DNA of 64,000 nt from Candidatus Rifleibacteriota bacterium (GTDB taxonomy: Bacteria > Muiribacteriota > Ozemobacteria > Ozemobacterales > Ozemobacteraceae): assembly GCA_012520995.1 (NCBI GenBank), contig JAAYNI010000046.1, forward strand, positions 42,650 through 106,649. Direction: 5' to 3'. The translations under genes were made by a program, and so were the position numbers. A model generated the notes under the pieces. The model worked only from the letters and a program-made list of their open reading frames with translations. It was not told where the DNA came from and made no database searches. Positions 46,492-58,445 of this stretch are shown piece by piece; positions within the stretch are counted from its first letter, which is position 1, and the number at the start of each line of letters is the position of its first letter.

Positions 46492-46916
46492 ATTCACAAA
46501 ACTGCAAGCATTTGCGTATTCTTATTTCCTTAGTATTAGCCTTAGGAGCTTTACATCTTTTTATGAAGCCTCCAGTTACACAAGCAAAAGATATTTTCAA
46601 AGAGAGTCTGCAAAAGCTTGATGTAACAATATACAAACAAGGAAAAAAAATTGCGGTACAATCTGTAACTCAGTCTTACCAAACAGCCTCGCCCGAACTA
46701 ATCACTTTTAATGACGCAACCTATTCGGAATTAACAGCCTGTAAATATATTTCTCCTGCAATAGCCGATCAGATCATAAAAGAACGAAAGAAACGTCCTT
46801 TTGATGATTGGGATGATTTTTCAAAAAGAATCAAAGGCATGGGAAAAGAAAAAATCTCATACTATAAAACAATAGGTCTAAAAATAAACAGAGAGCAAAA
46901 ACTTGAGACCCCCTAA
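46479..46916 (+). CDS. comEA: ComEA-like helix-hairpin-helix DNA-binding protein
   Basis: Signal/TM segment plus C-terminal ...ITFNDATYSELTACKYISPAIADQIIKERKKRPFDDWDDFSKRIKGMGKEKI, which resembles the ComEA HhH domain. It directly precedes comEC. Confidence 0.5.
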   Translation: MPRLNSQNCKHLRILISLVLALGALHLFMKPPVTQAKDIFKESLQKLDVTIYKQGKKIAVQSVTQSYQTASPELITFNDATYSELTACKYISPAIADQIIKERKKRPFDDWDDFSKRIKGMGKEKISYYKTIGLKINREQKLETP

Positions 46917-49077
46917 GAATGTTGTCAAAACCCTGAAACTCGACACTGTGACTCTCTTCACAGCTCTTTTTATTTCAGGCCTCCTTGTATCTTCAATTTT
47001 CCCTACTGAGTATGCCCTCCTCTGGCTTGCAGCTTCAATTCTTTGCTTTGCGGCATCTTTCAAAGCAAAGAATAAAAAAGCTTTAATATCTTTGCTTGCT
47101 GCAGCTGCCATTTTAGCCTCCATGTTTTATGCTGCAGTCAAATTTACTCCAAGCTTAGCCACAAAAGATCTTCAAACCCTTGAGGGAACAAAAGGGGAAA
47201 TCACAGGCATATTTTCAGGTTCCATAAAAAAGCTGAAGGACGGCTCATGCTCATTTCTTTTACGTGAATCCTATTACAGAACAGGTGAAAGGCTCTTAAG
47301 TCTTCCTATGCCAATAAGATGTAAAGCTCCAGCATCTGCCTGCCACATAGTTTCAGACAGTAAAGTCACCTTAACAGGCTATATGGAGGCATTGCCAAAG
47401 AGCAACCGAGTCCGTTTTGAAGCTGAAAATTGCAAGCTGGGAGAAAAAATTATAAAGTCCCATGTTTTCGCCTATTTTGATACACTTAGAAACAAAATAA
47501 TCACAAAGCTTCAGAGCATTTTAAAACCCGAACATGCTTCTTTCATATCTGCCATAATATTTGGCGAAACTTCATTTTTGGAAAACAACGAACTCTATCG
47601 CAAAACGGGAATCACTCATTTAATGGCTGTCTCTGGTCAACATTTAATGATCTTGGCTTTATTTTTGACTGCGATTCTCTACAAAACAGGAGTTCCCCCT
47701 CTTTCCAGAATCATATTCGTATCTGTATGCCTCTTGTTTTATGCGTTATTAACGGCAGGTTCACCATCGGTTTGGAGAGCCTTGCTCATGTATGTTTTCG
47801 TAGCCTTGACAGCCTATTTGGATGCGGAACACGTGCCAACCAGAGCAATTTCAATAGCCGCCCTGCTTATTTTGCTTTATAACCCTGCAAATCTGTACAG
47901 CCCTGCCTTTGTGCTCAGCTTCATAGCAGTGTTGTCTATAATATTTTTAAGAAAGCCTCTTGAAAAACTATTTTCCAAGCTCCGCCTGCCCCAATCAGTC
48001 AACCGATACTTGGCTGCGAGTACTGCCGCAAACATAGGCACTTTACCAGCTTCAGCCTGTTTATTTGGCTCGCTGCCCATTTCAGGTCTCATTGTAAACC
48101 CGCTTATTCTCTGGATATTTGCATATATATTCCCAATGTCTTTTACAATAGCCATTCTAGCTCTTATATCGCCAGAATTCGCCTTAAAATTCGTTCCCTT
48201 TCTCTCACTTGTCTTAGATGGAGTGACAATATTTTTGGAGTTTTTTGAAAAAAACTTGGGTCTATATTTTGAGTTCAACAAAATCTCTCCCTTCATAGCC
48301 TCCTTGCTGTATGCGATATTATTTGCCGCTGCAGCTTATTTCAACAGAAAAGAAGCAGAAACAGCAAAAGAAACTGCCAACTCTCTTGAAACAATCCGAA
48401 AAAAACGTTCTCAGCGACAAAGACAAAATCGTATTGAACAAGAGACTCAAAGTGAAAAAGAAGAACCAAAAGCTATAAAAGTCCCTCCTAAAAGGAAAGC
48501 CTTGGAAAACAGAAATTTATTGCGCGAAATAGATAATAGACTGATGCAACTTCCAAGACTTCCTGTTAAAGGCTCAGAATTGAAAATACATCCTAAGCTT
48601 GATCCAAAGCTCCTTCAAATAAACGCACAAAACCTTTACCATCGTGTCATGGAAGCTGACTCAAAACTATACATGGAAAGTCCTGACAGACTTTTAGAAT
48701 CTTGCACATCTCTTTTAGGAATAGTTTCCATGGAACTTCTTTCAAGAGTTTCGAGACTTTCCTCCAAGCCCAATTTTTCTCCATCTGATATAAAAATTAA
48801 GTTTCGCGTGGAACACAGAGAATTAGCTATGGCAGCAATTACTGACAGCATATTGGCTCCAGCCTTCATAATAGAAGTTCCTGACGAAAAATTTAAAATA
48901 ATGCTCTCAGAACTCCAAGGATTGTTCAATAAAGCAAGCGACCTTCTTGAAGGCCTTCTCTCGCCAACAGATTTATCAAAACTCCAAAAAGATTATGAAC
49001 TGCTGCGCAGCGAGCTTTTTTCTTGGTGCAGCGACTTTATAACTCTAGATCTGAATCAAAAACACAAAAAACCTTAA
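46903..49077 (+). CDS. comEC: ComEC/Rec2-family DNA-uptake channel protein lacking the metallo-beta-lactamase domain
   Basis: Competence-domain signature TGITHLMAVSGQHLMILALFL and a multi-TM core. The C-terminal ~240 aa are charged and helical, with no HxHxDH motif. The only start codon I see is the TTG at 46903, which is uncertain. Confidence 0.7.
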   Translation: MRPPKNVVKTLKLDTVTLFTALFISGLLVSSIFPTEYALLWLAASILCFAASFKAKNKKALISLLAAAAILASMFYAAVKFTPSLATKDLQTLEGTKGEITGIFSGSIKKLKDGSCSFLLRESYYRTGERLLSLPMPIRCKAPASACHIVSDSKVTLTGYMEALPKSNRVRFEAENCKLGEKIIKSHVFAYFDTLRNKIITKLQSILKPEHASFISAIIFGETSFLENNELYRKTGITHLMAVSGQHLMILALFLTAILYKTGVPPLSRIIFVSVCLLFYALLTAGSPSVWRALLMYVFVALTAYLDAEHVPTRAISIAALLILLYNPANLYSPAFVLSFIAVLSIIFLRKPLEKLFSKLRLPQSVNRYLAASTAANIGTLPASACLFGSLPISGLIVNPLILWIFAYIFPMSFTIAILALISPEFALKFVPFLSLVLDGVTIFLEFFEKNLGLYFEFNKISPFIASLLYAILFAAAAYFNRKEAETAKETANSLETIRKKRSQRQRQNRIEQETQSEKEEPKAIKVPPKRKALENRNLLREIDNRLMQLPRLPVKGSELKIHPKLDPKLLQINAQNLYHRVMEADSKLYMESPDRLLESCTSLLGIVSMELLSRVSRLSSKPNFSPSDIKIKFRVEHRELAMAAITDSILAPAFIIEVPDEKFKIMLSELQGLFNKASDLLEGLLSPTDLSKLQKDYELLRSELFSWCSDFITLDLNQKHKKP

Positions 49078-49108
49078 TAATAAAATCTCCATGTTTCACA
49101 TGAAACCA

Positions 49109-49245
49109 CTAGTGCTGTGTAGCATCTAAATGTTTATTGTCGGACAGATTTTTTTCTATCCACAGATGGACACAGATAGGATTTTTAAGCTAGCTTAAAA
49201 ATCAGTGCTGGGTGGTGAGTGACGAGTTGAATTATTTAGATTCAA
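49109..49245. repeat. Copy C of the dispersed intergenic element (ctagtgctgtgtagcatctaaa ... gtgagtgacgagttgaatt)
   Basis: Matches element B (61006-61130) at both blocks with similar spacing, and shares the 5' block with element A. Confidence 0.5.
49180..49203. promoter_or_regulatory. Perfect 24-bp palindrome gatttttaagctagcttaaaaatc upstream of the second pilin operon
   Basis: Self-complementary over all 24 nt. It lies about 230 nt upstream of the 49431 start codon. Confidence 0.5.
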
Positions 49246-49430
49246 ACACTAAAACTGACAACTGCTTTAAGATGCTAATAAATAGTCGAAACTTTAAGAT
49301 TTGAAAAATAGAGAACAACCTTGATGCAACTTTAATATACCAGACAGCAACAGAAAAGGCGGTTCACTTGCCCCCATTTTCCTTCTCATGTTAAAGTCTA
49401 TAGGCGACTTAATACATTTGGAAATTTAAC

Positions 49431-49889
49431 ATGATATCTCGTATAAAAAATGCCTATACTCTTCCAGAGCTTCTGATTACTGTTTTGCTGCTGGCAATAC
49501 TGCTATCCTTGGGCATTGTTTTTTCCTCAATAATGGCAAAAGGGCAAAAAAACAAGAGTTATGCAGTCGCTCTAGCTTTTGCTCAGCAAGCCATAGAGTT
49601 GGCAAGAGGCGCTCCCTTTGAAATCTTAAGTTCATCTGATGCTGGTGAAGCCAGTGTTGAATATGATCTGAATAACAAATCCAGCGACAATGATTTGCTT
49701 ATTCCTACTTTAGAAAACGGTGAAGCTGTTTATACCAGAACAGTGAAAATAAGAGACATAAAAACAAAAGATGACCCTGACAGTAACGCTGGCTTGAAAC
49801 ATATCAGCGTAAAAGTTGAATGGATCTCCCCTGAAAATAACAAGCCTGATACTCTTGAAATTAACTCGCTGATAGCCAATATCAACTAA
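49431..49889 (+). CDS. Prepilin-type pseudopilin/minor pilin
   Basis: N-terminus MISRIKNAYTLPELLITVLLLAILLSLGIV. Confidence 0.65.
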   Translation: MISRIKNAYTLPELLITVLLLAILLSLGIVFSSIMAKGQKNKSYAVALAFAQQAIELARGAPFEILSSSDAGEASVEYDLNNKSSDNDLLIPTLENGEAVYTRTVKIRDIKTKDDPDSNAGLKHISVKVEWISPENNKPDTLEINSLIANIN

Positions 49890-49890
49890 T

Positions 49891-50640
49891 ATGTACAAAA
49901 GTTTCAACAAAAACCTATCGGAAAAAAGAGCCTTCACTCTAACAGAGATGTTATTGGCCTTAGCTCTCACCGCAATGGTTTTAGCAGCCGCTTACAAAGT
50001 TTTTATTGAACAACAAAAACTGGTGAAATTTTCGGTTGAAACCGTTCATGCAAATGAATCTTTCAGAAAAGTGACCTTCTTTATGGGAGAAGACATAAAG
50101 AAAGCCACCCGCATAGTCAGACCTACGCCAGTTCCATTGGCCTCCGCTTCCGAGCTGATAACAAAAGTCGGCACTATTATGACCGTACAGACTTCCGAGA
50201 TAGATCCAAGAATCAAATTTGACAGTTCTCTTGGCACGCAGATTGCCAAGAGAACTCACATTGACTACGAGCTGGAACTTATGCCAAACTTCAATGAAGA
50301 TTCCGAAGAAGTGCCCGTTTACAGACTAATACGAAATGCCGTTCTCGACGAGGAAGACGGAACCCATTCAGGACAAAGACAAGTGATAGCGGAAAACATA
50401 CAAGATCTTATAATCTACAGAACTGTTCGCGAGCCATTCAAAATTCATTCACTCTCAGAACCTTCAGATCGCATGATTGAGCCTAGAAGTCTAAGCGAAA
50501 CAGGAACAGGCAATAATATAATACACGTAAAAATGGCTATCGAGCGTGACAGATATAAAAAAGAAAAGGGCTCGGTTTACTCGGTTACTATGGAAACCTC
50601 CTTTTACAAACGCGGAAAAGAGATATTCCTGAACCCATGA
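49891..50640 (+). CDS. Prepilin-type minor pilin (PilW/GspJ-like)
   Basis: N-terminus ...KRAFTLTEMLLALALTAMVLAAAYKVF. Confidence 0.6.
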   Translation: MYKSFNKNLSEKRAFTLTEMLLALALTAMVLAAAYKVFIEQQKLVKFSVETVHANESFRKVTFFMGEDIKKATRIVRPTPVPLASASELITKVGTIMTVQTSEIDPRIKFDSSLGTQIAKRTHIDYELELMPNFNEDSEEVPVYRLIRNAVLDEEDGTHSGQRQVIAENIQDLIIYRTVREPFKIHSLSEPSDRMIEPRSLSETGTGNNIIHVKMAIERDRYKKEKGSVYSVTMETSFYKRGKEIFLNP

Positions 50641-52886
50641 AAAATTTGCTGAATTCAAAAAGAGGATACGGAATTATCATTGTCATTCTTTTCATGACAG
50701 TGATGTTTGTATTGTTCGCCGTTTATTTTAAGATGCAAAGCGCTCATTCCTTTTTATATTCCAAGCATGTCAGACGCTCAGTCGCTTCAAACCTTGCGGA
50801 AGGCGTTTTAAACTGCATTATTGCCGAACTGGATGCTAACAGAACATTCGCCACTCACTGGAACTACGACGCAAAAGACACATACACTTTCAAAAGCCCT
50901 GTAAAAAGCCGTGAAACATCCTTGGGGCCTATACCAAACTTTAAAATTGGAGGAGTAAAAAACGGAATTTACTATGGAAGCAGCGACTATGGCACTTTTA
51001 AAGCAAAGTTCGCCCCTTGCTTCGGAGGCTTCGAAAACCCAAAAACCAAAACTCTTTCTGAAAGCAGCATGTACACAAAAGCCGAGATAGCAGTTAAAAC
51101 TGAGGCTGGAAAAACCTCAAAAGATGAGCCTGTCTGCATCAAACTTTCAGCTATTCTCGAAAGACGATTCCCTTCGGCAGAACATGCTCTATATGACGGA
51201 GAAGTATTAGACATAGGCGCTTTGGGTCCATATAACAGCAGCCCCAACGAAATTCGCAGAGCAAGACTTTACGGACATCACTCCATTTTCTTCACTTCAA
51301 AAGGCGCAGGCGATCATGGAACAGAGCTTTTCGAAATTGAAAAAATCGAAACTCCAGGAATGATAAGAGTTACATCAGATACAGATGTCAAATTTTCTGA
51401 CAACACCTCTACTGTGCTGTGCCCTGAAAACGACTCTTTGAACATAACCGCCTTCAACTCTTTTGAAGGCTATCTGATAGACGGCACACATGGAGCTCAC
51501 TCTATAAAACTGAATCGCATTCCTAAAGAGAGATTGCTGAATTACGTGCAAACATATAAGAAAAGCTCTGGAGTTTACATAGACAGTTCGACTTTGCCAG
51601 AATCTGAATATAGAAATCCTTATGATCCTCAAACAAAGTATTACGATCTTGACTTCGGCGAATACAGATTAACAAGCGAGGGCGAAAAACTCGGAAGCGA
51701 CGATCCAAAATGTATAAAAGAAAAAAACGGAGAAAAAATTGTTGTTTATTCAAAAGTTCCCTTAAGAATATGGGGCTCTCCCGACAAAAGCATAACCATC
51801 TACAGCGAAAAAGATATTGTTATAGCCGGTGATTACAACCAAAAGCATTCGACAAGACAAGTATATAAGGACAACCGATATTTAGACTATGCTACAAGAA
51901 TTTACAACGGGAAATACAACCATAAAGTAGGCTCTCTGATAATGACCGAAGGAAGAATAATCATAGACTATTCTGATCCTTCTCTATTTGCAAAAAACGA
52001 AATAAAGCCATATTTTCTTTGGAAACTTGCTGAAAGCATGAATCCCTATTCCCAGAAAATAGCCGGCGAAATCAAAACCGCCCTAGCTCCTCCAGATCCC
52101 TCTGAGAGAACAGCTATTTTCGGAGTTGAAGAAAACATAGACGCTACAGGCAAACTTATACCCAGACTTGGCACCATAGCGTTTCTCTACAACTTTCCTG
52201 AAGTTGATGAAGGCGGCAGCTATAATGCAAACATGGAAGACCTCATAGCATTTTTCACTCCAGGAACTCCAAAATCCATATTCCCTATAAAAAATACACA
52301 GGGTCGCGAAGAGCTTATAGAAATAATTAAGGATGCTTGCAGAACAAACGGCGATTTGACGCTAGCAGAGCAAGATGAAATATTCAACTTTGCTTGGCAA
52401 AAAGCTCTAGAAGACCGTAAAGAAGCTCCTGACGAAAAATGTGCAATAATGGAGATAATTCCCCATCTCTTTAAGGATGCCGCCAAAGACCACAGGGACG
52501 GTCTATTTATACCGGAAATGACAATAAACTCTTTCCTGATCAGTTCAGAAAAACGTTCCTCAATCTGGAGACAAGGCAATAATTCCAACAAGGCCATGGA
52601 TGAAATAGGCAACGTCGGAGATAAGAAATATATTAAACCGCCAGGATTTATAATACTTAGAATTTACGGCGGATATGCTCGTATAGGACGAAAAGAACCT
52701 TCATATTTTATTTCAGGAGAACATACCACAAAAACAGGAGTTCTCAGACGCATAGTCTGGGACAATACTAACCTGACAAATCAAGACTATCGCCCATTAG
52801 AGCAGCCTGTTACCCACAACGTGCTGACAATAAGCGAAACTTTAATAACAGAAAAAGAATATGAAGAGTTTAGCGGCAAAGAATAA
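50637..52886 (+). CDS. Large pilus-associated protein (PilX/PilY1-like position), N-terminally membrane-anchored
   Basis: 749 aa. N-terminal TM GIIIVILFMTVMFVLFAVYF; overlaps the upstream pilin stop. No recognisable catalytic motif. Confidence 0.45.
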   Translation: MKNLLNSKRGYGIIIVILFMTVMFVLFAVYFKMQSAHSFLYSKHVRRSVASNLAEGVLNCIIAELDANRTFATHWNYDAKDTYTFKSPVKSRETSLGPIPNFKIGGVKNGIYYGSSDYGTFKAKFAPCFGGFENPKTKTLSESSMYTKAEIAVKTEAGKTSKDEPVCIKLSAILERRFPSAEHALYDGEVLDIGALGPYNSSPNEIRRARLYGHHSIFFTSKGAGDHGTELFEIEKIETPGMIRVTSDTDVKFSDNTSTVLCPENDSLNITAFNSFEGYLIDGTHGAHSIKLNRIPKERLLNYVQTYKKSSGVYIDSSTLPESEYRNPYDPQTKYYDLDFGEYRLTSEGEKLGSDDPKCIKEKNGEKIVVYSKVPLRIWGSPDKSITIYSEKDIVIAGDYNQKHSTRQVYKDNRYLDYATRIYNGKYNHKVGSLIMTEGRIIIDYSDPSLFAKNEIKPYFLWKLAESMNPYSQKIAGEIKTALAPPDPSERTAIFGVEENIDATGKLIPRLGTIAFLYNFPEVDEGGSYNANMEDLIAFFTPGTPKSIFPIKNTQGREELIEIIKDACRTNGDLTLAEQDEIFNFAWQKALEDRKEAPDEKCAIMEIIPHLFKDAAKDHRDGLFIPEMTINSFLISSEKRSSIWRQGNNSNKAMDEIGNVGDKKYIKPPGFIILRIYGGYARIGRKEPSYFISGEHTTKTGVLRRIVWDNTNLTNQDYRPLEQPVTHNVLTISETLITEKEYEEFSGKE

Positions 52887-54282: not shown

Positions 54283-54311
54283 TTGACGTTTCCCGTACAT
54301 AACCGTATAAT
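54283..54311 (+). promoter_or_regulatory. Strong sigma70-type promoter (TTGACG-17-TATAAT)
   Basis: TTGACG at 54283-54288, exactly 17 nt, TATAAT at 54306-54311. It lies about 80 nt upstream of an intrinsic terminator. Confidence 0.55.
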
Positions 54312-54394
54312 TGTTGTAAAGCATCAAGCTAGGCTCATTGACAACAATATATGGAGTTGGAAACCAGCTTAACGGCTATTAACTTTGTGTTCTT

Positions 54395-54430
54395 GGCTCC
54401 GCTTTTACCCGAGGCGGAGCCTTTTTATAT
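54395..54430 (+). terminator. Rho-independent terminator (ggctccgc-loop-gcggagcc + T-run)
   Basis: 8-bp GC-rich stem at 54395-54402 and 54414-54421, then TTTTTATAT. Confidence 0.7.
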
Positions 54431-54513
54431 ATCCCGATACTACCCGGTATCACGTTCTTTTTTTTACCTACCCAATCAATATCACTACACTTCTTTATGA
54501 AGGAGGACAATCT

Positions 54514-55422
54514 ATGAGATTGACTAAGAGGCTTATGCGACTGACAGCAGCTACTCTCGTAGTAACCGTGCTGTTCATGACAATGCTCACAGCTCCCGCA
54601 GAAGCCGCCGGACTCTTCTCCAGGCTCAAAAAGACAGCAACTGAGAAGAAGTCTCCTGTCAAGACAGCTCTTGTAGGTGTAGCTGCGGTTGGCGGCGCTA
54701 TTCTGGCAGCCCCACTTCTGTCCACTGCTCTCGGATTCGCATCCGGTTCAGTTGCAGGTTTGGCTGGCGGAGCGACGACAGCGTTGGCTGCAGCAGGTAC
54801 TGGCTTGGCTGGAATCGGAGGCGCAATTTGGGGTGGACTATCAGCTGCAGGCGGTTTCGTAACAGGCGCTATTGGCGCACTGGGCGGAGCATTAGGCAGT
54901 ATGTTCGCAGGGATTGCAGGCTTCATTGGTTCAATTATCTCAAGTCCGTTGCTTGTCCCGGCTCTTTTGATAGCAGGAGCAGCAGTTGCAGGTTATTATC
55001 TGTATAAGAAATACAAGAGACAACCCCAGACCATAACCAACAGCAACAATATTCCCGCAAAGAAAGCAGACGCCATCAAGCAACAACCGGTCACAACCGT
55101 AACAGCTCATAAGGCTGAGATACCAATAGCAGCTTCACAAGCGCAAACACAAGCACAAGAAGAAACGGCTATGCCCGTTACACAAGGAAATGCGCCGCTG
55201 CCAGCAGTATCAGGCTCTGATGAACTCACTCAGGCTCACGCCGCTTACGTAAAAGCATATAACGACTATATGAGTAAGGTAACAAGAATCGGCGGCTCTG
55301 AAAATCCTGATGAGGAAATGAGATCCAATATGCTCCGCGATGACACTCAGCAAGCTCTGAACGAATATCGCAAGGCATATAACAAGTATGTGACTCTCTT
55401 GAGAGCGAACAAAAGCAAGTAG
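54514..55422 (+). CDS. Secreted/membrane Gly-Ala-rich glycine-zipper protein with conserved C-terminal YRKAYNxY motif
   Basis: Start at the ATG at 54514 (AAGGAGG ribosome-binding site). Signal peptide, about 130 aa of GxxxG/A-rich hydrophobic sequence, a basic KKYKRQP stop-transfer segment, and C-terminal ...QALNEYRKAYNKYVTLLRA. Confidence 0.6.
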   Translation: MRLTKRLMRLTAATLVVTVLFMTMLTAPAEAAGLFSRLKKTATEKKSPVKTALVGVAAVGGAILAAPLLSTALGFASGSVAGLAGGATTALAAAGTGLAGIGGAIWGGLSAAGGFVTGAIGALGGALGSMFAGIAGFIGSIISSPLLVPALLIAGAAVAGYYLYKKYKRQPQTITNSNNIPAKKADAIKQQPVTTVTAHKAEIPIAASQAQTQAQEETAMPVTQGNAPLPAVSGSDELTQAHAAYVKAYNDYMSKVTRIGGSENPDEEMRSNMLRDDTQQALNEYRKAYNKYVTLLRANKSK

Positions 55423-55433
55423 CCCTGAATAAA

Positions 55434-55467
55434 ATACCCGGGAGTTCTTCCCGGGTATTTTTATTTT
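55434..55467 (+). terminator. Rho-independent terminator (atacccggg-loop-ccgggtat + T-run)
   Basis: Stem at 55434-55442 and 55451-55458, followed by TTTTATTTT. Confidence 0.7.
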
Positions 55468-55743: not shown

Positions 55744-58365
55744 ATGAAAAGAAAAATTTTTATTCTGCTTCTTTTGCTTTTGATATTGCCCCCCTTTTTT
55801 ACACCTTATAAAGCTCATGCAACATCAGAGCAAAATCCCGTAGAGATTATTGGCACATGGAATCTGATCAACAAAAAAGAATATCATGACACTGAAATTC
55901 TTCAGGTATTGCCTACTCGCGACGGAAAGATAAACACTCTTTCAATTGATCAAAATGGAACCTTTGTAAATACTCGTTACGAAGAAAGTCGCCTTAACTT
56001 TAACAAACAAGGGCAAAAACTCCCTCAATACGAAATGAAAGATGGGGGCACAACTAGAACAGTAAATTCTTGGACTTGCAGCGGCAACCTTTTGAAATTG
56101 AAAAACCGAGGCGACTGGTATTATGAACTAAAAGACAATAATCTCTGGCTGAAAGATCGTGCTGAAAATGCAAGAGTAATACGTGTGTTCAGCAAAACAA
56201 AACAACCTTCGCCATTGCCTGGCGATCTTCTTCTGGGAACATGGCATATGACTCAGCTGAAAGAGTATCATGATTCTGAACCTCTTCAGGTATGGCCTAA
56301 CCAAGCAGGAGAAACAAACACTCTGCAAATAAATAAAGACGGAACTCATACTACCATAAACTATCAAAAAGAGCGTCTTAATTTTGAGCGACATGGTTAT
56401 AACTTGCCACAATATGAAATAAAAACTGGAGATACAGTAACCCAAAAAGAAGGTCACTGCAAAGCTTACAATAACTCTGTCTTGTGGCTGGAAGGACAAG
56501 ATGCTTGGGCATACAAACTTAAAAACGACAATCAGGAATTGTGGCTCCAAGATCGTGCCGACAAACCAAATACAATATATGTTTACTCTAAAACTCCGCC
56601 GAAAAGCACCTTACCCTCTACGGAGCTTATAGGCACTTGGCATATAATCAAACAAAAAGAGTATCATGATTCTGAACCTCTTCAGGTATGGCCTAACCAA
56701 TCAGAAAAAACTCATACTCTGGTAATCAATAAAGACGGAACCCACTCAAGAACTGATTATGAACAATATCGTCTCAATTTCAACAACTATGGTCATGAGT
56801 TGTCACAATATCAAATAAAGGATGGAGGCACAGCAGTCCAAAAAGAAGGCTACGCTAAATCCTATTATGACAATGTTTTATGGCTGGAAGGCAAAGACAA
56901 CTGCACATACGAATTAAAAAACGACAATCAGGAGTTGTGGCTGAAAAACCGTGTCAAAGATGCCAATACAATATATATTTACAGCAAGAAGTCGCCACAA
57001 AACACCTTGCCGACTGCTGATTTGACAGGCACTTGGCACATGATTCAGCTTAAAGAGTATCATGATTCTGAACCCTTCAAGATATGGCCTACCGAAGACG
57101 GAAAAAACAACACTCTAATTATTAATAAAGACGGAACTCATACTACCATAAACTATCAAAAAGAGCGTCTTAATCTCAGCCGCTACGGTTATGAGCAATT
57201 ACAATACCAAATAAAGAATGAAGTCTCAGAAAAGAAGGAAGGATACGCTAAATCTTATTACGGCGATGTTTTGCGATTAGAGAATCAGGAAGACTGGTAT
57301 TACGAACTTAAAGGCAACGAATTATACCTTAAGAATCGCCTTAAAGATGCCAATACAATACGTATTTACAGCAAAACTCCTCCACAAAGCCCTTTACCGC
57401 AAGCATCTCTCATTGGCACATGGAATATCTATAAGATAAAATGGCATGACAGCGATCTGCATAGGGTAACACCACACGAAGATGGAAATAGAGACAGCAT
57501 AACTATTGATGCAAAAGGAACCCACTCAAGCGCTACTTATAACCACAGCCGCCGCCAATTTGCAAACGAAGAAAAAACATATACAACACACGGCGATCCG
57601 AAAAAACGCTCAGGTTTCTGCAGATCATATTTTGGAAATGTTCTAATACTTGAAAATATGGGAACCTTCAGTTATGAAGTTAATGACAATGAACTGAGCC
57701 TTAAGGATCTCCCAACAGACCCTCGAAGCATTGACCTTTACAAAAAAGTTTCTTCACCGAAAACCCCAGCAGAGGGCACAGCCGTTGCAACAAAACCTGT
57801 CACCTCTGACACAAAAGTTTCAGGAGCAACTCAAGAAGCAAAGACTGGAGCTACCAGCACAAAAACTTCAGGAACAACCCAAGGAACAAAGACTGAAACT
57901 GCTGGCACAAAAACTTCAGGAACAACTCAAGAAGCAAAGACCGGAGCTACTGGCAAAAAAACTACAGATTCAGCTCAAGAAGCAAAAACTGGAGCTGCCG
58001 GCACAAAAACTACAGGTTCAACCCAAGAAACAAAGACTGGAACTACTGGCACAAAAGCTTCGGGAACAACCCAAGGAACAAAGACGACCTCGCCCACACA
58101 AAAGACGCAAACATACGATGAAGCATATGACACAGATATACCGCCTTTTCCTGCAAATCTGCCTGTTCCAACAGAAGAAGATGACTATGAATTTATGCAG
58201 GTTTATCTAGATTACGTAACAACGCATAAAGAATACACAATTCTTAAAGCTTCAGCTAAAGAACTCGGCGTCCGCATACCTCCAGGCAAACTTGAACAAG
58301 CGCTGGACGCTTATCGGAAGGCATATAACAGATATAAAAATATGGCTCTCACCAGGAAGAAGTGA
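55744..58365 (+). CDS. Large secreted protein: 5 tandem ~130-aa GTW-motif domains + Thr/Gly/Lys-rich 13-aa repeats + conserved C-terminal YRKAYNxY motif
   Basis: AGAGGA ribosome-binding site; signal peptide. Five repeats each begin L(I/L/T)GTW(N/H)...KEYHDSEPLQVWP, then TSGTTQEAKTGAT-type repeats, then a C-terminal ...QALDAYRKAYNRYKNMAL. Confidence 0.7.
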   Translation: MKRKIFILLLLLLILPPFFTPYKAHATSEQNPVEIIGTWNLINKKEYHDTEILQVLPTRDGKINTLSIDQNGTFVNTRYEESRLNFNKQGQKLPQYEMKDGGTTRTVNSWTCSGNLLKLKNRGDWYYELKDNNLWLKDRAENARVIRVFSKTKQPSPLPGDLLLGTWHMTQLKEYHDSEPLQVWPNQAGETNTLQINKDGTHTTINYQKERLNFERHGYNLPQYEIKTGDTVTQKEGHCKAYNNSVLWLEGQDAWAYKLKNDNQELWLQDRADKPNTIYVYSKTPPKSTLPSTELIGTWHIIKQKEYHDSEPLQVWPNQSEKTHTLVINKDGTHSRTDYEQYRLNFNNYGHELSQYQIKDGGTAVQKEGYAKSYYDNVLWLEGKDNCTYELKNDNQELWLKNRVKDANTIYIYSKKSPQNTLPTADLTGTWHMIQLKEYHDSEPFKIWPTEDGKNNTLIINKDGTHTTINYQKERLNLSRYGYEQLQYQIKNEVSEKKEGYAKSYYGDVLRLENQEDWYYELKGNELYLKNRLKDANTIRIYSKTPPQSPLPQASLIGTWNIYKIKWHDSDLHRVTPHEDGNRDSITIDAKGTHSSATYNHSRRQFANEEKTYTTHGDPKKRSGFCRSYFGNVLILENMGTFSYEVNDNELSLKDLPTDPRSIDLYKKVSSPKTPAEGTAVATKPVTSDTKVSGATQEAKTGATSTKTSGTTQGTKTETAGTKTSGTTQEAKTGATGKKTTDSAQEAKTGAAGTKTTGSTQETKTGTTGTKASGTTQGTKTTSPTQKTQTYDEAYDTDIPPFPANLPVPTEEDDYEFMQVYLDYVTTHKEYTILKASAKELGVRIPPGKLEQALDAYRKAYNRYKNMALTRKK
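55846..57790 (+). repeat. Five in-frame tandem coding repeats, period about 384-396 nt
   Basis: The GTW codon triplets recur at 55852, 56236, 56632, 57028 and 57415. Repeats 2-4 share long near-identical DNA stretches, for example aaagagtatcatgattctgaacctcttcaggtatggcctaaccaa. Confidence 0.8.
57780..58110 (+). repeat. About 39-nt (13-aa) tandem repeats encoding a Thr/Gly/Lys-rich linker
   Basis: Repeating acaaaaacttcaggaacaac(c/t)caag(g/a)a(a/g)caaagac(t/c)gga... units, about 7-8 copies. Confidence 0.75.
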
Positions 58366-58409
58366 TGTATGCGGAAAACTGATGCAATATAGAATATAGA
58401 GTATAAAAA

Positions 58410-58445
58410 AACATCGCAGTTATTAAACTGCGATGTTTTTTTATT
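58410..58445. terminator. Bidirectional rho-independent terminator between convergent genes
   Basis: aaaaaaacatcgcagt-tattaa-actgcgatgttttttt: an 11-bp stem flanked by an A-run on one side and a T-run on the other. Confidence 0.65.

Follow-up and report, generated by a model that had tools for sequence, protein, structure and literature searches.

The Gene and Its Distribution

The window analysed here is a stretch of 64,000 nucleotides from a Candidatus Rifleibacteriota bacterium (contig JAAYNI010000046.1, positions 42,650 to 106,649). It contains a gene at 54514..55422 that encodes a glycine-zipper/hairpin protein of 302 amino acids (302 codons plus stop), here called the subfamily A protein, and, downstream of it, a gene for an exported protein of 873 amino acids (55744..58365). 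Both proteins end in a Tyr-rich helical hairpin. This shared domain, the glycine-rich membrane part of the smaller protein and the conserved leader of its gene are the subjects of this study. All features annotated for the two genes are on the forward strand.

The coding sequence begins with the ATG at 54514, and the corresponding MRLKRS start is seen in all homologues of the protein alignment. The ATG is preceded by a ribosome-binding site, GAAGGAGGA (54499..54507), which was read from the sequence, and AAGGAGGA is kept at this position among the orthologues in the leader alignment. A longer open reading frame (ORF) of 345 aa with a TTG start at 54385 was rejected, because it reads through the conserved non-coding leader. 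The frame from 54385 to 54513 is open upstream in many orthologous loci too, and gene callers might over-extend the subfamily A gene; in locus L063 it is annotated at 281 aa. The residues 250-345, to which the preliminary description had assigned the shared domain, are numbered after the extended ORF, and in the 302-aa protein the domain comprises residues 233-302.

The subfamily A protein has 91 full-length homologues with 46-61% identity, all about 300 aa long. One of them, a hypothetical protein from a Candidatus Riflebacteria metagenome-assembled genome (MAG), is 100% identical, and nearly all named homologues are from Riflebacteria, Rifleibacterium or Ozemobacteraceae. The gene is real and present phylum-wide in Riflebacteria.

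A scan with a degenerate DNA pattern, using one genome per species, yielded 57 loci. The pattern requires Q-x-A-L and is blind to Q-A-L hairpins of the neighbour type, and the per-genome census of possible cargo proteins with a hairpin is therefore incomplete. The 57 translated loci fall into two paralogous subfamilies, A and B, which have the same architecture and often occur together in one MAG. The hairpin of subfamily A has a long loop, GGSENPDEELRSN, whereas subfamily B proteins are about 285 aa long, start with MIRRYELRV... and have the short hairpin loop NSGGADP. Subfamily B was found at L003, L015, L024, L025, L029, L035, L036, L039, L042, L047 and L053, in each case without the leader element, and a linker motif is conserved in it (...TPGDYEM...ISIGG..VTISD...). 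Typical A and/or B genes are also carried by MAGs labelled Erysipelotrichia, Methylomirabilis and Avigastranaerophilus (L007, L031/L003, L023/L042, L039/L060), and the leader is present ahead of their subfamily A genes. These MAGs are probably mis-binned or mis-named.

The C-Terminal Hairpin Is Shared with the Neighbouring Protein

The Tyr-rich helical hairpin of the subfamily A protein comprises residues 233-302 (55210..55419). It was delimited by a confident structure prediction, an internal repeat and profile matches in other proteins. The preliminary description had claimed that this region is a domain shared with the 873-aa neighbour, and the claim was verified. BLASTP aligned the two C-termini with E = 3e-5 and 28% identity over 92 columns. 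The Smith-Waterman score was 64, compared with 24.7 ± 4.7 for shuffled sequences (z = 8.3), and none of the 2000 shuffles reached it in either direction; the alignment thus withstood the comparison with shuffled controls that the preliminary description had set as a refuting test. The pattern QAL[DN].YRKAYN.Y, which had been proposed for a search of the proteome, was looked for in the six-frame translation of the window, where it matched only the two C-termini.

The structure was predicted with AlphaFold2 from an alignment of 80 sequences, and the C-terminus was modelled as a confident antiparallel helical hairpin. It consists of helices 234-257 and 276-298 and a short helix, 265-273, and the predicted local distance difference test (pLDDT) values of residues 234-298 are 90-98. 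The second long helix repeats the first: the alignment of DELTQAHAAYVKAYNDY with DDTQQALNEYRKAYNKY has a score of 43, compared with 16.8 ± 3.9 after shuffling, and 0 of 3000 shuffles reached this score. The repeat is seen also in the consensus of subfamily A and in paralogue B, and both helices have the motif A-x3-Y-x2-A-Y-N-x-Y. Conserved residues are L238, A241, H242, Y245, V246, A248, Y249, N250 and Y252 in the first long helix, and A281, L282, Y285, R286, A288, Y289, N290, Y292, L295 and L296 in the second. They lie on more than one face of each helix and exceed the needs of a two-helix core, and thus the hairpin seems to have a conserved outer surface in addition to its own core.

In subfamily A the loop GGSENPDEE(L/M)RSN.LR.D (residues 260-277, 55291-55344) is acidic and nearly invariant. 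It is found neither in paralogue B nor in any other of the hairpin proteins, and it could form a ligand or cation site that is specific to the subfamily.

The hairpin family was defined by a profile, A4, with the pattern A-x3-Y-x2-A-[YF]-x2-Y ... A-L-x2-Y-[RK]-x2-Y-x2-Y, i.e., two helices of about 22 residues and a loop of 8-25 residues. The hidden Markov model (HMM) built from it scored the subfamily A protein with 72.3 bits and the neighbour with 54.1 bits (E = 4.5e-15). A third copy was found with the hairpin HMM neither in the window nor in the flanking regions of 60 related loci.

The neighbour starts with a signal peptide, which is followed by five repeats of about 130 aa, each starting with GTW, a linker and the hairpin (residues 811-873, 58174..58362). 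The latter was detected by BLASTP and the HMM and was also recovered in a profile search of other proteins (P0104, E = 5.4e-12). The GTW repeats look lipocalin-like by eye only, and no significant match to Pfam or the PDB was obtained for them. The linker of about 140 aa is rich in T, G, K and Q (TSGTTQEAKTGA...), and its DNA contains 5.8 copies of a 48-bp tandem repeat (57806-58085). This repeat probably also accounts for an overlapping ORF of 159 aa in a different frame (57731-58210). The neighbour has no transmembrane (TM) segment besides the signal peptide, and its hairpin must therefore be exported. In the sister strain (L063 6001-9501) the neighbour has 1166 aa (P0105) and extra repeat units, and the gene order is otherwise identical. 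The neighbour is thus a fast-changing exported repeat protein. An origin of its hairpin as a recent copy from the adjacent gene was ruled out, because it is closer to the hairpins of two other secreted proteins, P0122 and P0119.

The Hairpin Is Found in Many Exported Proteins

An exhaustive profile search with an HMM of 15 hairpins was performed against 1.84 billion representative proteins, and it revealed 38 matches at E<=1e-3. Further proteins with zipper plus hairpin were P0103, P0106, P0110-P0112, P0114, P0117 and P0130. The other architectures are diverse. In P0109 a signal peptide is followed by 5-6 tandem hairpins. Five proteins of 500-1350 aa have an N-terminal hairpin with a signal peptide directly before it (P0116, P0121, P0122, P0126 and P0132), and two of them, P0116 and P0122, match the NCBIfam model of the putative HExxH metalloprotease MXAN_6640. 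P0121 is from the gammaproteobacterium Ectothiorhodospira sp. BSL-9; its listed sequence has no signal peptide at the start, and a variant of 1080 aa, P0143, is assumed to carry one. In P0118-P0120 and P0129 the order is signal peptide, Cys-containing helix and hairpin, and P0120 has Sel1 repeats in addition. P0125 consists of a zinc ribbon, a TM segment and the hairpin, and in P0127 a lipobox-type signal precedes the hairpin. Wherever else the N-terminus of a non-zipper architecture was read, a signal peptide, a lipobox or a TM segment with the N-terminus inside stands before the hairpin. Because it stands behind export signals in nearly all architectures, we infer that the domain is extracytoplasmic.

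In several of the hairpin proteins P0109, P0116, P0121, P0122, P0125, P0126 and L005 8001-11096 a motif, ...LDT[ST]G[IV]DGI..., is conserved after the hairpin.

The tandem protein P0109 was modelled with AlphaFold2 from the single sequence. Each hairpin was predicted as a separate unit with pLDDT values of 80-90, the linkers were disordered, and the predicted template modelling score (pTM) of the whole protein was 0.26. The separation of the units suggests that the hairpin is autonomous and not part of a solenoid. Weak matches of the hairpin profile in multiple stretches were obtained with two TPR_12 proteins (P0115 and P0133), and the likeness to TPRs is superficial. When the hairpin alignments A2 and A4 were used as queries in word-indexed searches, nothing but fragments of the hairpin's own family was retrieved.

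The comparison of these sequences supports the view of the hairpin as a strongly conserved and autonomous module in many otherwise unrelated exported proteins, which would fit a role in partner binding or anchoring. The preliminary description had left a choice between a common targeting, anchoring or partner-binding domain. The latter two agree with the homologous C-termini and with the recurrence of the module in exported proteins, whereas targeting is unlikely, because no known sorting signal was matched and because the hairpin is N-terminal or in tandem elsewhere. The known C-terminal sorting signals were rejected: for LPXTG, PEP-CTERM, GlyGly-CTERM and the C-terminal domain (CTD) of type IX secretion, no match was found in NCBIfam or Pfam, and a terminal TM helix with a basic tail is missing in the protein. 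The C-terminus was predicted to be a soluble amphipathic helical hairpin and not a beta-sandwich CTD. The N-terminal or tandem location of the hairpin in other proteins makes a C-terminal targeting signal unlikely.

The Membrane Part of the Subfamily A Protein

The protein starts with a signal peptide (residues 1-31, 54514..54606), which was read by eye and has a basic n-region, a hydrophobic core and an AEA|AG cleavage-type site. The junction is ...TAPAEA|AGLF, AxA-GLF is conserved across 80 homologues, and no lipobox Cys is present at this junction. A Lys-rich segment follows (residues 32-50, GLFSRLKK..., 54607..54663), for which AlphaFold2 predicted a helix from 29 to 44. Next is an uncharged Gly/Ala-rich hydrophobic block (residues 51-165, 54664..55008), which was defined by its composition and conserved Gly residues. 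It has 115 residues, mainly A (29), G (27), L (16), I (9), S (8), V (7) and T (6), and the first charge is K165. The Gly-rich stretch noted in the preliminary description thus exists, but it is shorter than the approximately 130 residues given there. Within the block, an invariant SPLxxPAL turn occupies residues 144-151, and the last TM helix, residues 147-167, was predicted with pLDDT values of 74-88 in the model based on 80 sequences.

The repeated GxxxG/AxxxG spacing that had been claimed is barely above the level expected from composition. The pattern [GAS]xxx[GAS] occurs 39 times in the block, compared with 34.1 ± 2.7 in shuffled sequences (p about 0.05), and the seven occurrences of GxxxG do not differ significantly from the 6.0 in shuffles. 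However, Gly is at least 90% conserved at 19 positions among 80 homologues, and conserved Gly residues form stripes on helix faces with the spacing i, i+4, i+7, i+10, i+14, namely 114-118-121-124-128 and 133-136-140.

The block is followed, as had been described, by a basic anchor and a Q/T/A-rich linker, i.e., the juxtamembrane cluster YKKYKRQ (164-170) and a variable P/T/S/Q/A-rich linker (171-232; together 55003..55209). In the alignment of the homologues the cluster reads Y-x-L-[WY]-K-K-Y-K-R-Q. The linker is P/T/S/V/Q-rich and poorly conserved with many gaps, and the pLDDT is below 50 at 183-230. The conservation peaks in the zipper block and in the hairpin.

A Conserved Leader with the Architecture of an Attenuator

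The subfamily A gene is monocistronic and has its own promoter and terminator. The sigma-70-type promoter (54283..54311) consists of TTGACG (54283-54288), a spacer of 17 nt and TATAAT (54306-54311) and matches 11 of 12 consensus positions. TATAAT was invariant in 13/13 and 24/24 aligned orthologous loci in two alignments. The intrinsic terminator (55431..55461) has a stem of 14 pairs and a subsequent T-run.

Between promoter and start codon lies a conserved 5' leader of about 200 nt (54318..54513, alignments A5 and A6), the start of which was deduced from the promoter. Its minimum free energy fold has a z-score of -2.26, and no Rfam match was found at E<=1. A terminator scan detected a terminator-like hairpin in it, P1, with the arms GGCTCCGC and GCGGAGCC, the loop TTTTACCCGAG and a following T-run (54395..54431). 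The hairpin proper (54395-54421) is situated 84 nt after the -10 box, and its loop, UUUUACCCGAG, is conserved. In the stem five of the 12 consensus pairs are compensatory (e.g., U-A in 13 versus C-G in 11 cases).

Upstream of P1 lies ACGGAAUCCAGU, a conserved strand and candidate antiterminator, which could form an alternative helix with the 5' arm of the P1 stem. The aligned position in the window has AUGGAGUUGGA (54351..54361). Over 24 loci the antiterminator helix was paired to 83.7%, compared with 23-47% when the partner was slid; six of ten pairs had double changes, and 0 of 500 shuffles reached the score. With RNAduplex the antiterminator exceeded shuffled sequences in 16 of the 24 lineages; the strand of this window has diverged, and its duplex was no better than shuffles. 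P1 is followed by a second hairpin, CCCGATAC-TACCCG-GTATC, and the motif TTACCTACCC (54433..54473). UACCC motifs repeat downstream of P1, and Ozemobacter-type lineages have ACCCAAACCC repeats instead, followed by a G-poor spacer.

In the 64-kb window a covariance model of the leader had a single match (61.8 bits), and among the related loci it found the leader ahead of subfamily A genes only, never ahead of subfamily B. It is present also at L001, L006-L062 and L063. Two other readings were rejected. The leader hairpin is neither a generic repeat nor the terminator of the upstream gene, because each locus has only one copy, which is situated downstream of an invariant promoter and has a conserved loop. 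The conserved leader motifs, inspected by eye, did not fit sigma-54, sigma-28 or extracytoplasmic function (ECF) promoters.

As in attenuators, a terminator stem-loop with a U-run lies between promoter and start codon, and a mutually exclusive alternative helix can be formed. The likeness to attenuators and riboswitch expression platforms includes the promoter-proximal conserved sequence, the covariation of the exclusive helices and the position of the U-run after the terminator. In contrast to both, the leader matches no Rfam family and has a short sensor part, Ozemobacter-type lineages have a weak U-run followed by C-rich, G-poor repeats, and this window has only weak pairing of the antiterminator. 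Judged from alignment and covariation, the leader is a candidate for a new attenuator or riboswitch-like element with the architecture of a transcription attenuator. The conserved terminator/antiterminator leader makes the expression of the subfamily A gene appear conditional.

Comparison with Known Families

The protein and its hairpin were not matched by known families. Pfam had no match to the whole protein at E<=0.01 and none to the zipper block (residues 33-172) or to either hairpin at E<=10, and NCBIfam had none. A search of the PDB with the hairpin profile gave nothing significant by sequence, and Foldseek against the PDB found only generic or designed helical hairpins, all with E >0.4. 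The sole match of the full-length profile in the PDB was the TM-proximal part of human cytomegalovirus (HCMV) gB (E = 1.2e-6), which was judged to be compositional. Matches in PHROG to Gly-rich membrane parts of phage tape-measure proteins and tail lysins had E-values from 7.7e-6 to 8e-3 and are probably compositional as well. Tape-measure proteins also have runs of Gly/Ala-rich hydrophobic helices, but they have more than 1200 aa compared with 300 aa here, the match is limited to the low-complexity block, and the subfamily A gene is chromosomal and vertically conserved. The surrounding genes are chromosomal housekeeping genes, without a phage context.

The membrane part resembles SlyB/Pcp and YfgH (Rick_17kDa_Anti and Gly-zipper families), which are also exported envelope proteins with Gly/Ala-rich helices and a tight helical-hairpin turn; their stripes of small-xxx-small residues may have a counterpart in the conserved Gly stripes, and the probably conditional expression is a further likeness. 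However, no HMM of the glycine-zipper families (Glycine zipper 2TM, Gly-zipper_Omp, YMGG, SlyB-like) matched residues 33-172 at E<=10, and a lipoprotein signal is absent. In comparison to SlyB, the block of subfamily A has 115 instead of about 40 residues, and a tether and the helical hairpin replace the periplasmic domain.

The hairpin can be compared with several helical modules. CpxP and Spy are periplasmic helical-hairpin dimerisers with duplicated LTXXQ motifs, and they share with it the small extracytoplasmic antiparallel hairpin and a short motif in both helices. The motif is different (A-x3-Y-x2-A-Y-N-x-Y), sequence or profile similarity was not found, and the module is fused to diverse proteins instead of being a stand-alone chaperone. 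TPRs of the TPR_12 type are likewise helix-turn-helix structures with A, L and Y at a/d positions, and TPRs of OGT were retrieved in the PDB search at E of about 0.9. However, Pfam TPR models did not match at E<=10, the hairpins are single or linker-separated units and not a packed solenoid, their helices are longer, and they have an internal duplication. Cohesin-dockerin, SLH and CWB2 systems are similar in the use of a small module on flexible Thr/Pro-rich linkers of diverse secreted proteins together with a scaffold anchored in membrane or wall, and with P0109 a multivalent tandem version exists. In contrast to these systems, the fold is all-helical with two helices, any partner is putative, there are apparently few cargo proteins per genome, and no homology exists.

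Pfam, NCBIfam and the PDB, as searched, thus contain neither the protein family nor the hairpin, and Rfam does not contain the leader. The parts are similar to familiar types, i.e., glycine-zipper membrane proteins, helical association modules and attenuators, and are not categorically new.

Surroundings of the Two Genes

A search for conserved synteny that could hint at a partner gene was negative; only DUF6263-like and YedF-like genes recur, and these in close relatives. Downstream of the 873-aa gene, between it and a convergent nitroreductase/Fer4 gene, lies a perfect palindrome of 19 pairs with A/T runs on both sides (58403-58444). It is probably a bidirectional terminator, and it gave spurious weak matches to small RNAs in Rfam. 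Upstream of the subfamily A gene a cluster (46903-52886) encodes a ComEC-like competence protein (Pfam Competence, E = 1.2e-44), an ORF of 152 aa, an N_methyl pseudopilin and a 749-aa protein without family; no link between this cluster and the zipper/hairpin gene was found.

Possible Function of the Protein

The architecture, homology, conservation, fold confidence, hairpin distribution and leader covariation described above are the starting point for an explanation that we favour tentatively, at less than even confidence. The subfamily A protein may be a Sec-exported multi-span glycine-zipper protein with an extracytoplasmic association hairpin, which acts as an anchor or scaffold and is expressed conditionally. 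After cleavage of the signal peptide, the chain would consist of the Lys-rich helix, the block of 115 residues, the basic cluster, a flexible tether of about 60 residues and the hairpin of 65 residues. With a cleaved signal peptide and the C-terminus outside, we infer that the block would cross the inner membrane an even number of times, most likely about four. Four spans could be accommodated in paralogue A (115 residues) as well as in paralogue B (about 96 residues), and the SPLxxPAL turn would then connect the last two helices. The hairpin would be a protein-protein association module on the extracytoplasmic side, joining hairpin-bearing chains, either of the same or of another protein, e.g., in a four-helix bundle. 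The membrane protein would be the anchor or scaffold, at this locus the 873-aa neighbour could be held at the envelope via its own hairpin, and the production of the anchor would be set by the terminator/antiterminator leader. The presence of two paralogues with the same architecture in many genomes was counted in favour of this explanation, as was the diderm envelope of Riflebacteria (bioRxiv 10.1101/2021.05.31.446380).

Several observations weigh against it. The topology is the weakest step: a periplasmic C-terminus places KKYKRQ outside, contrary to the positive-inside rule, and with it both Lys-rich flanks are outside. In the AlphaFold2 model residues 65-128 of the zipper block have pLDDT values below 50, and the number of spans is a guess; the multi-helix glycine-zipper packing suggested in the preliminary description may fit the conserved Gly stripes, but these residues are not modelled with confidence. 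The block of paralogue B is shorter by about 19 residues (columns 80-98 of alignment A1). Furthermore, the neighbour adjoins the subfamily A gene only in the sister strain and not in other Riflebacteria, and thus anchoring of the neighbour cannot be the conserved role of the family. The neighbour's hairpin has identities of 40% with that of P0122 and 35% with that of P0119, and of only 18-26% with the subfamily A hairpins. Finally, few other hairpin-bearing cargo candidates from the exhaustive profile search could be assigned to Riflebacteria.

A different role, which we regard as rather unlikely but still worth weighing, would be that of a membrane stabiliser under envelope stress. The zipper helices would self-assemble as in SlyB and YfgH, the hairpin would only homo-oligomerise, and the hairpin of the neighbour would be the result of incidental domain shuffling. 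Two preprints (bioRxiv 10.64898/2026.06.08.730324, 10.64898/2025.12.22.696046) describe both proteins as glycine-zipper stress factors of the outer membrane, which was counted for this role. The conserved Gly stripes with the SPLxxPAL helical-hairpin turn, the conditional expression suggested by the leader, the stand-alone gene with strong promoter, ribosome-binding site and terminator, and the lack of a conserved partner gene were counted for it as well. However, even at E<=10 no Pfam glycine zipper was matched, a lipobox is missing, the block has about four times the length of a 2TM zipper, and the fusion of the hairpin to secreted enzymes elsewhere would be left unexplained.

The anchor reading can also be extended, in a form that we consider unlikely at present, to a wider and hitherto unrecognised docking system outside the cytoplasm. 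Zipper anchors of subfamilies A and B and tandem adaptors like P0109 might capture hairpin-tagged secreted enzymes and binding proteins by the formation of helix bundles, and the production of the anchor might be switched by an attenuator or riboswitch of a new class.

Two further explanations are improbable. According to one of them, the protein would be a regulated glycine-zipper channel or pore made of oligomeric Gly-rich helices, with the leader as a riboswitch-like sensor of the solute that is transported or tolerated and the hairpin for gating or oligomerisation. A terminator/antiterminator architecture is typical of riboswitches ahead of small membrane transporters, and the leader has this architecture; its conserved sequence 5' of the antiterminator is, however, short (about 45 nt) and matches no known aptamer. 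The weak PHROG matches (E = 7.7e-6 and 1.8e-4) to Gly-rich membrane-spanning regions of phage tail lysins and tape-measure proteins could point to a pore, but they are probably compositional, and polar or charged residues suited to line a pore are missing from the block. For a type VII secretion system effector with a glycine zipper, damage of membranes is reported (PMC12955049), which was counted for a pore; the phylum-wide vertical conservation and the lack of an adjacent immunity gene speak against a toxin.

According to the other one, which is just as improbable, the hairpin would bind an envelope polymer, i.e., peptidoglycan, a secondary cell-wall polymer or lipopolysaccharide (LPS), and would tether the inner membrane and secreted proteins to it, in a role similar to SLH or LysM with a different fold. 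Glycans are typically bound by aromatic and amide side chains, and six invariant Tyr residues together with conserved Asn and His lie on the helix surfaces. The fusion of the hairpin to many different exported proteins would fit as well, and Riflebacteria are diderm Terrabacteria with OmpM homologues and tethering of the OmpM/SLH type (bioRxiv 10.1101/2021.05.31.446380). Searches of Pfam and the PDB and with Foldseek revealed no similarity to any known wall-binding domain, two-helix hairpins are unusual as glycan binders, and the hairpin is present also in Ectothiorhodospira, which has a different envelope chemistry.

The last explanation, that the C-terminal likeness is due to chance or low complexity and the ORF is not a gene, could draw on the single-sequence GxxxG counts, but it is excluded by the 2000 shuffles, the 91 orthologues of constant length and the recovery of the neighbour in the profile search, and the confident fold prediction also speaks against it.

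Significance

Riflebacteria are uncultured, and their envelope biology is known from genomes alone. A protein without family that is conserved in the phylum and probably expressed strongly and conditionally is an entry point to this biology. The hairpin, a compact domain absent from the libraries used, occurs in several phyla as a part of putative proteases, repeat proteins and membrane anchors; its definition would annotate these proteins and give a hypothesis for their retention at the envelope. Independently of the protein, the clearly covarying leader is a candidate for a new cis-regulatory RNA, and its signal would hint at what the protein does.

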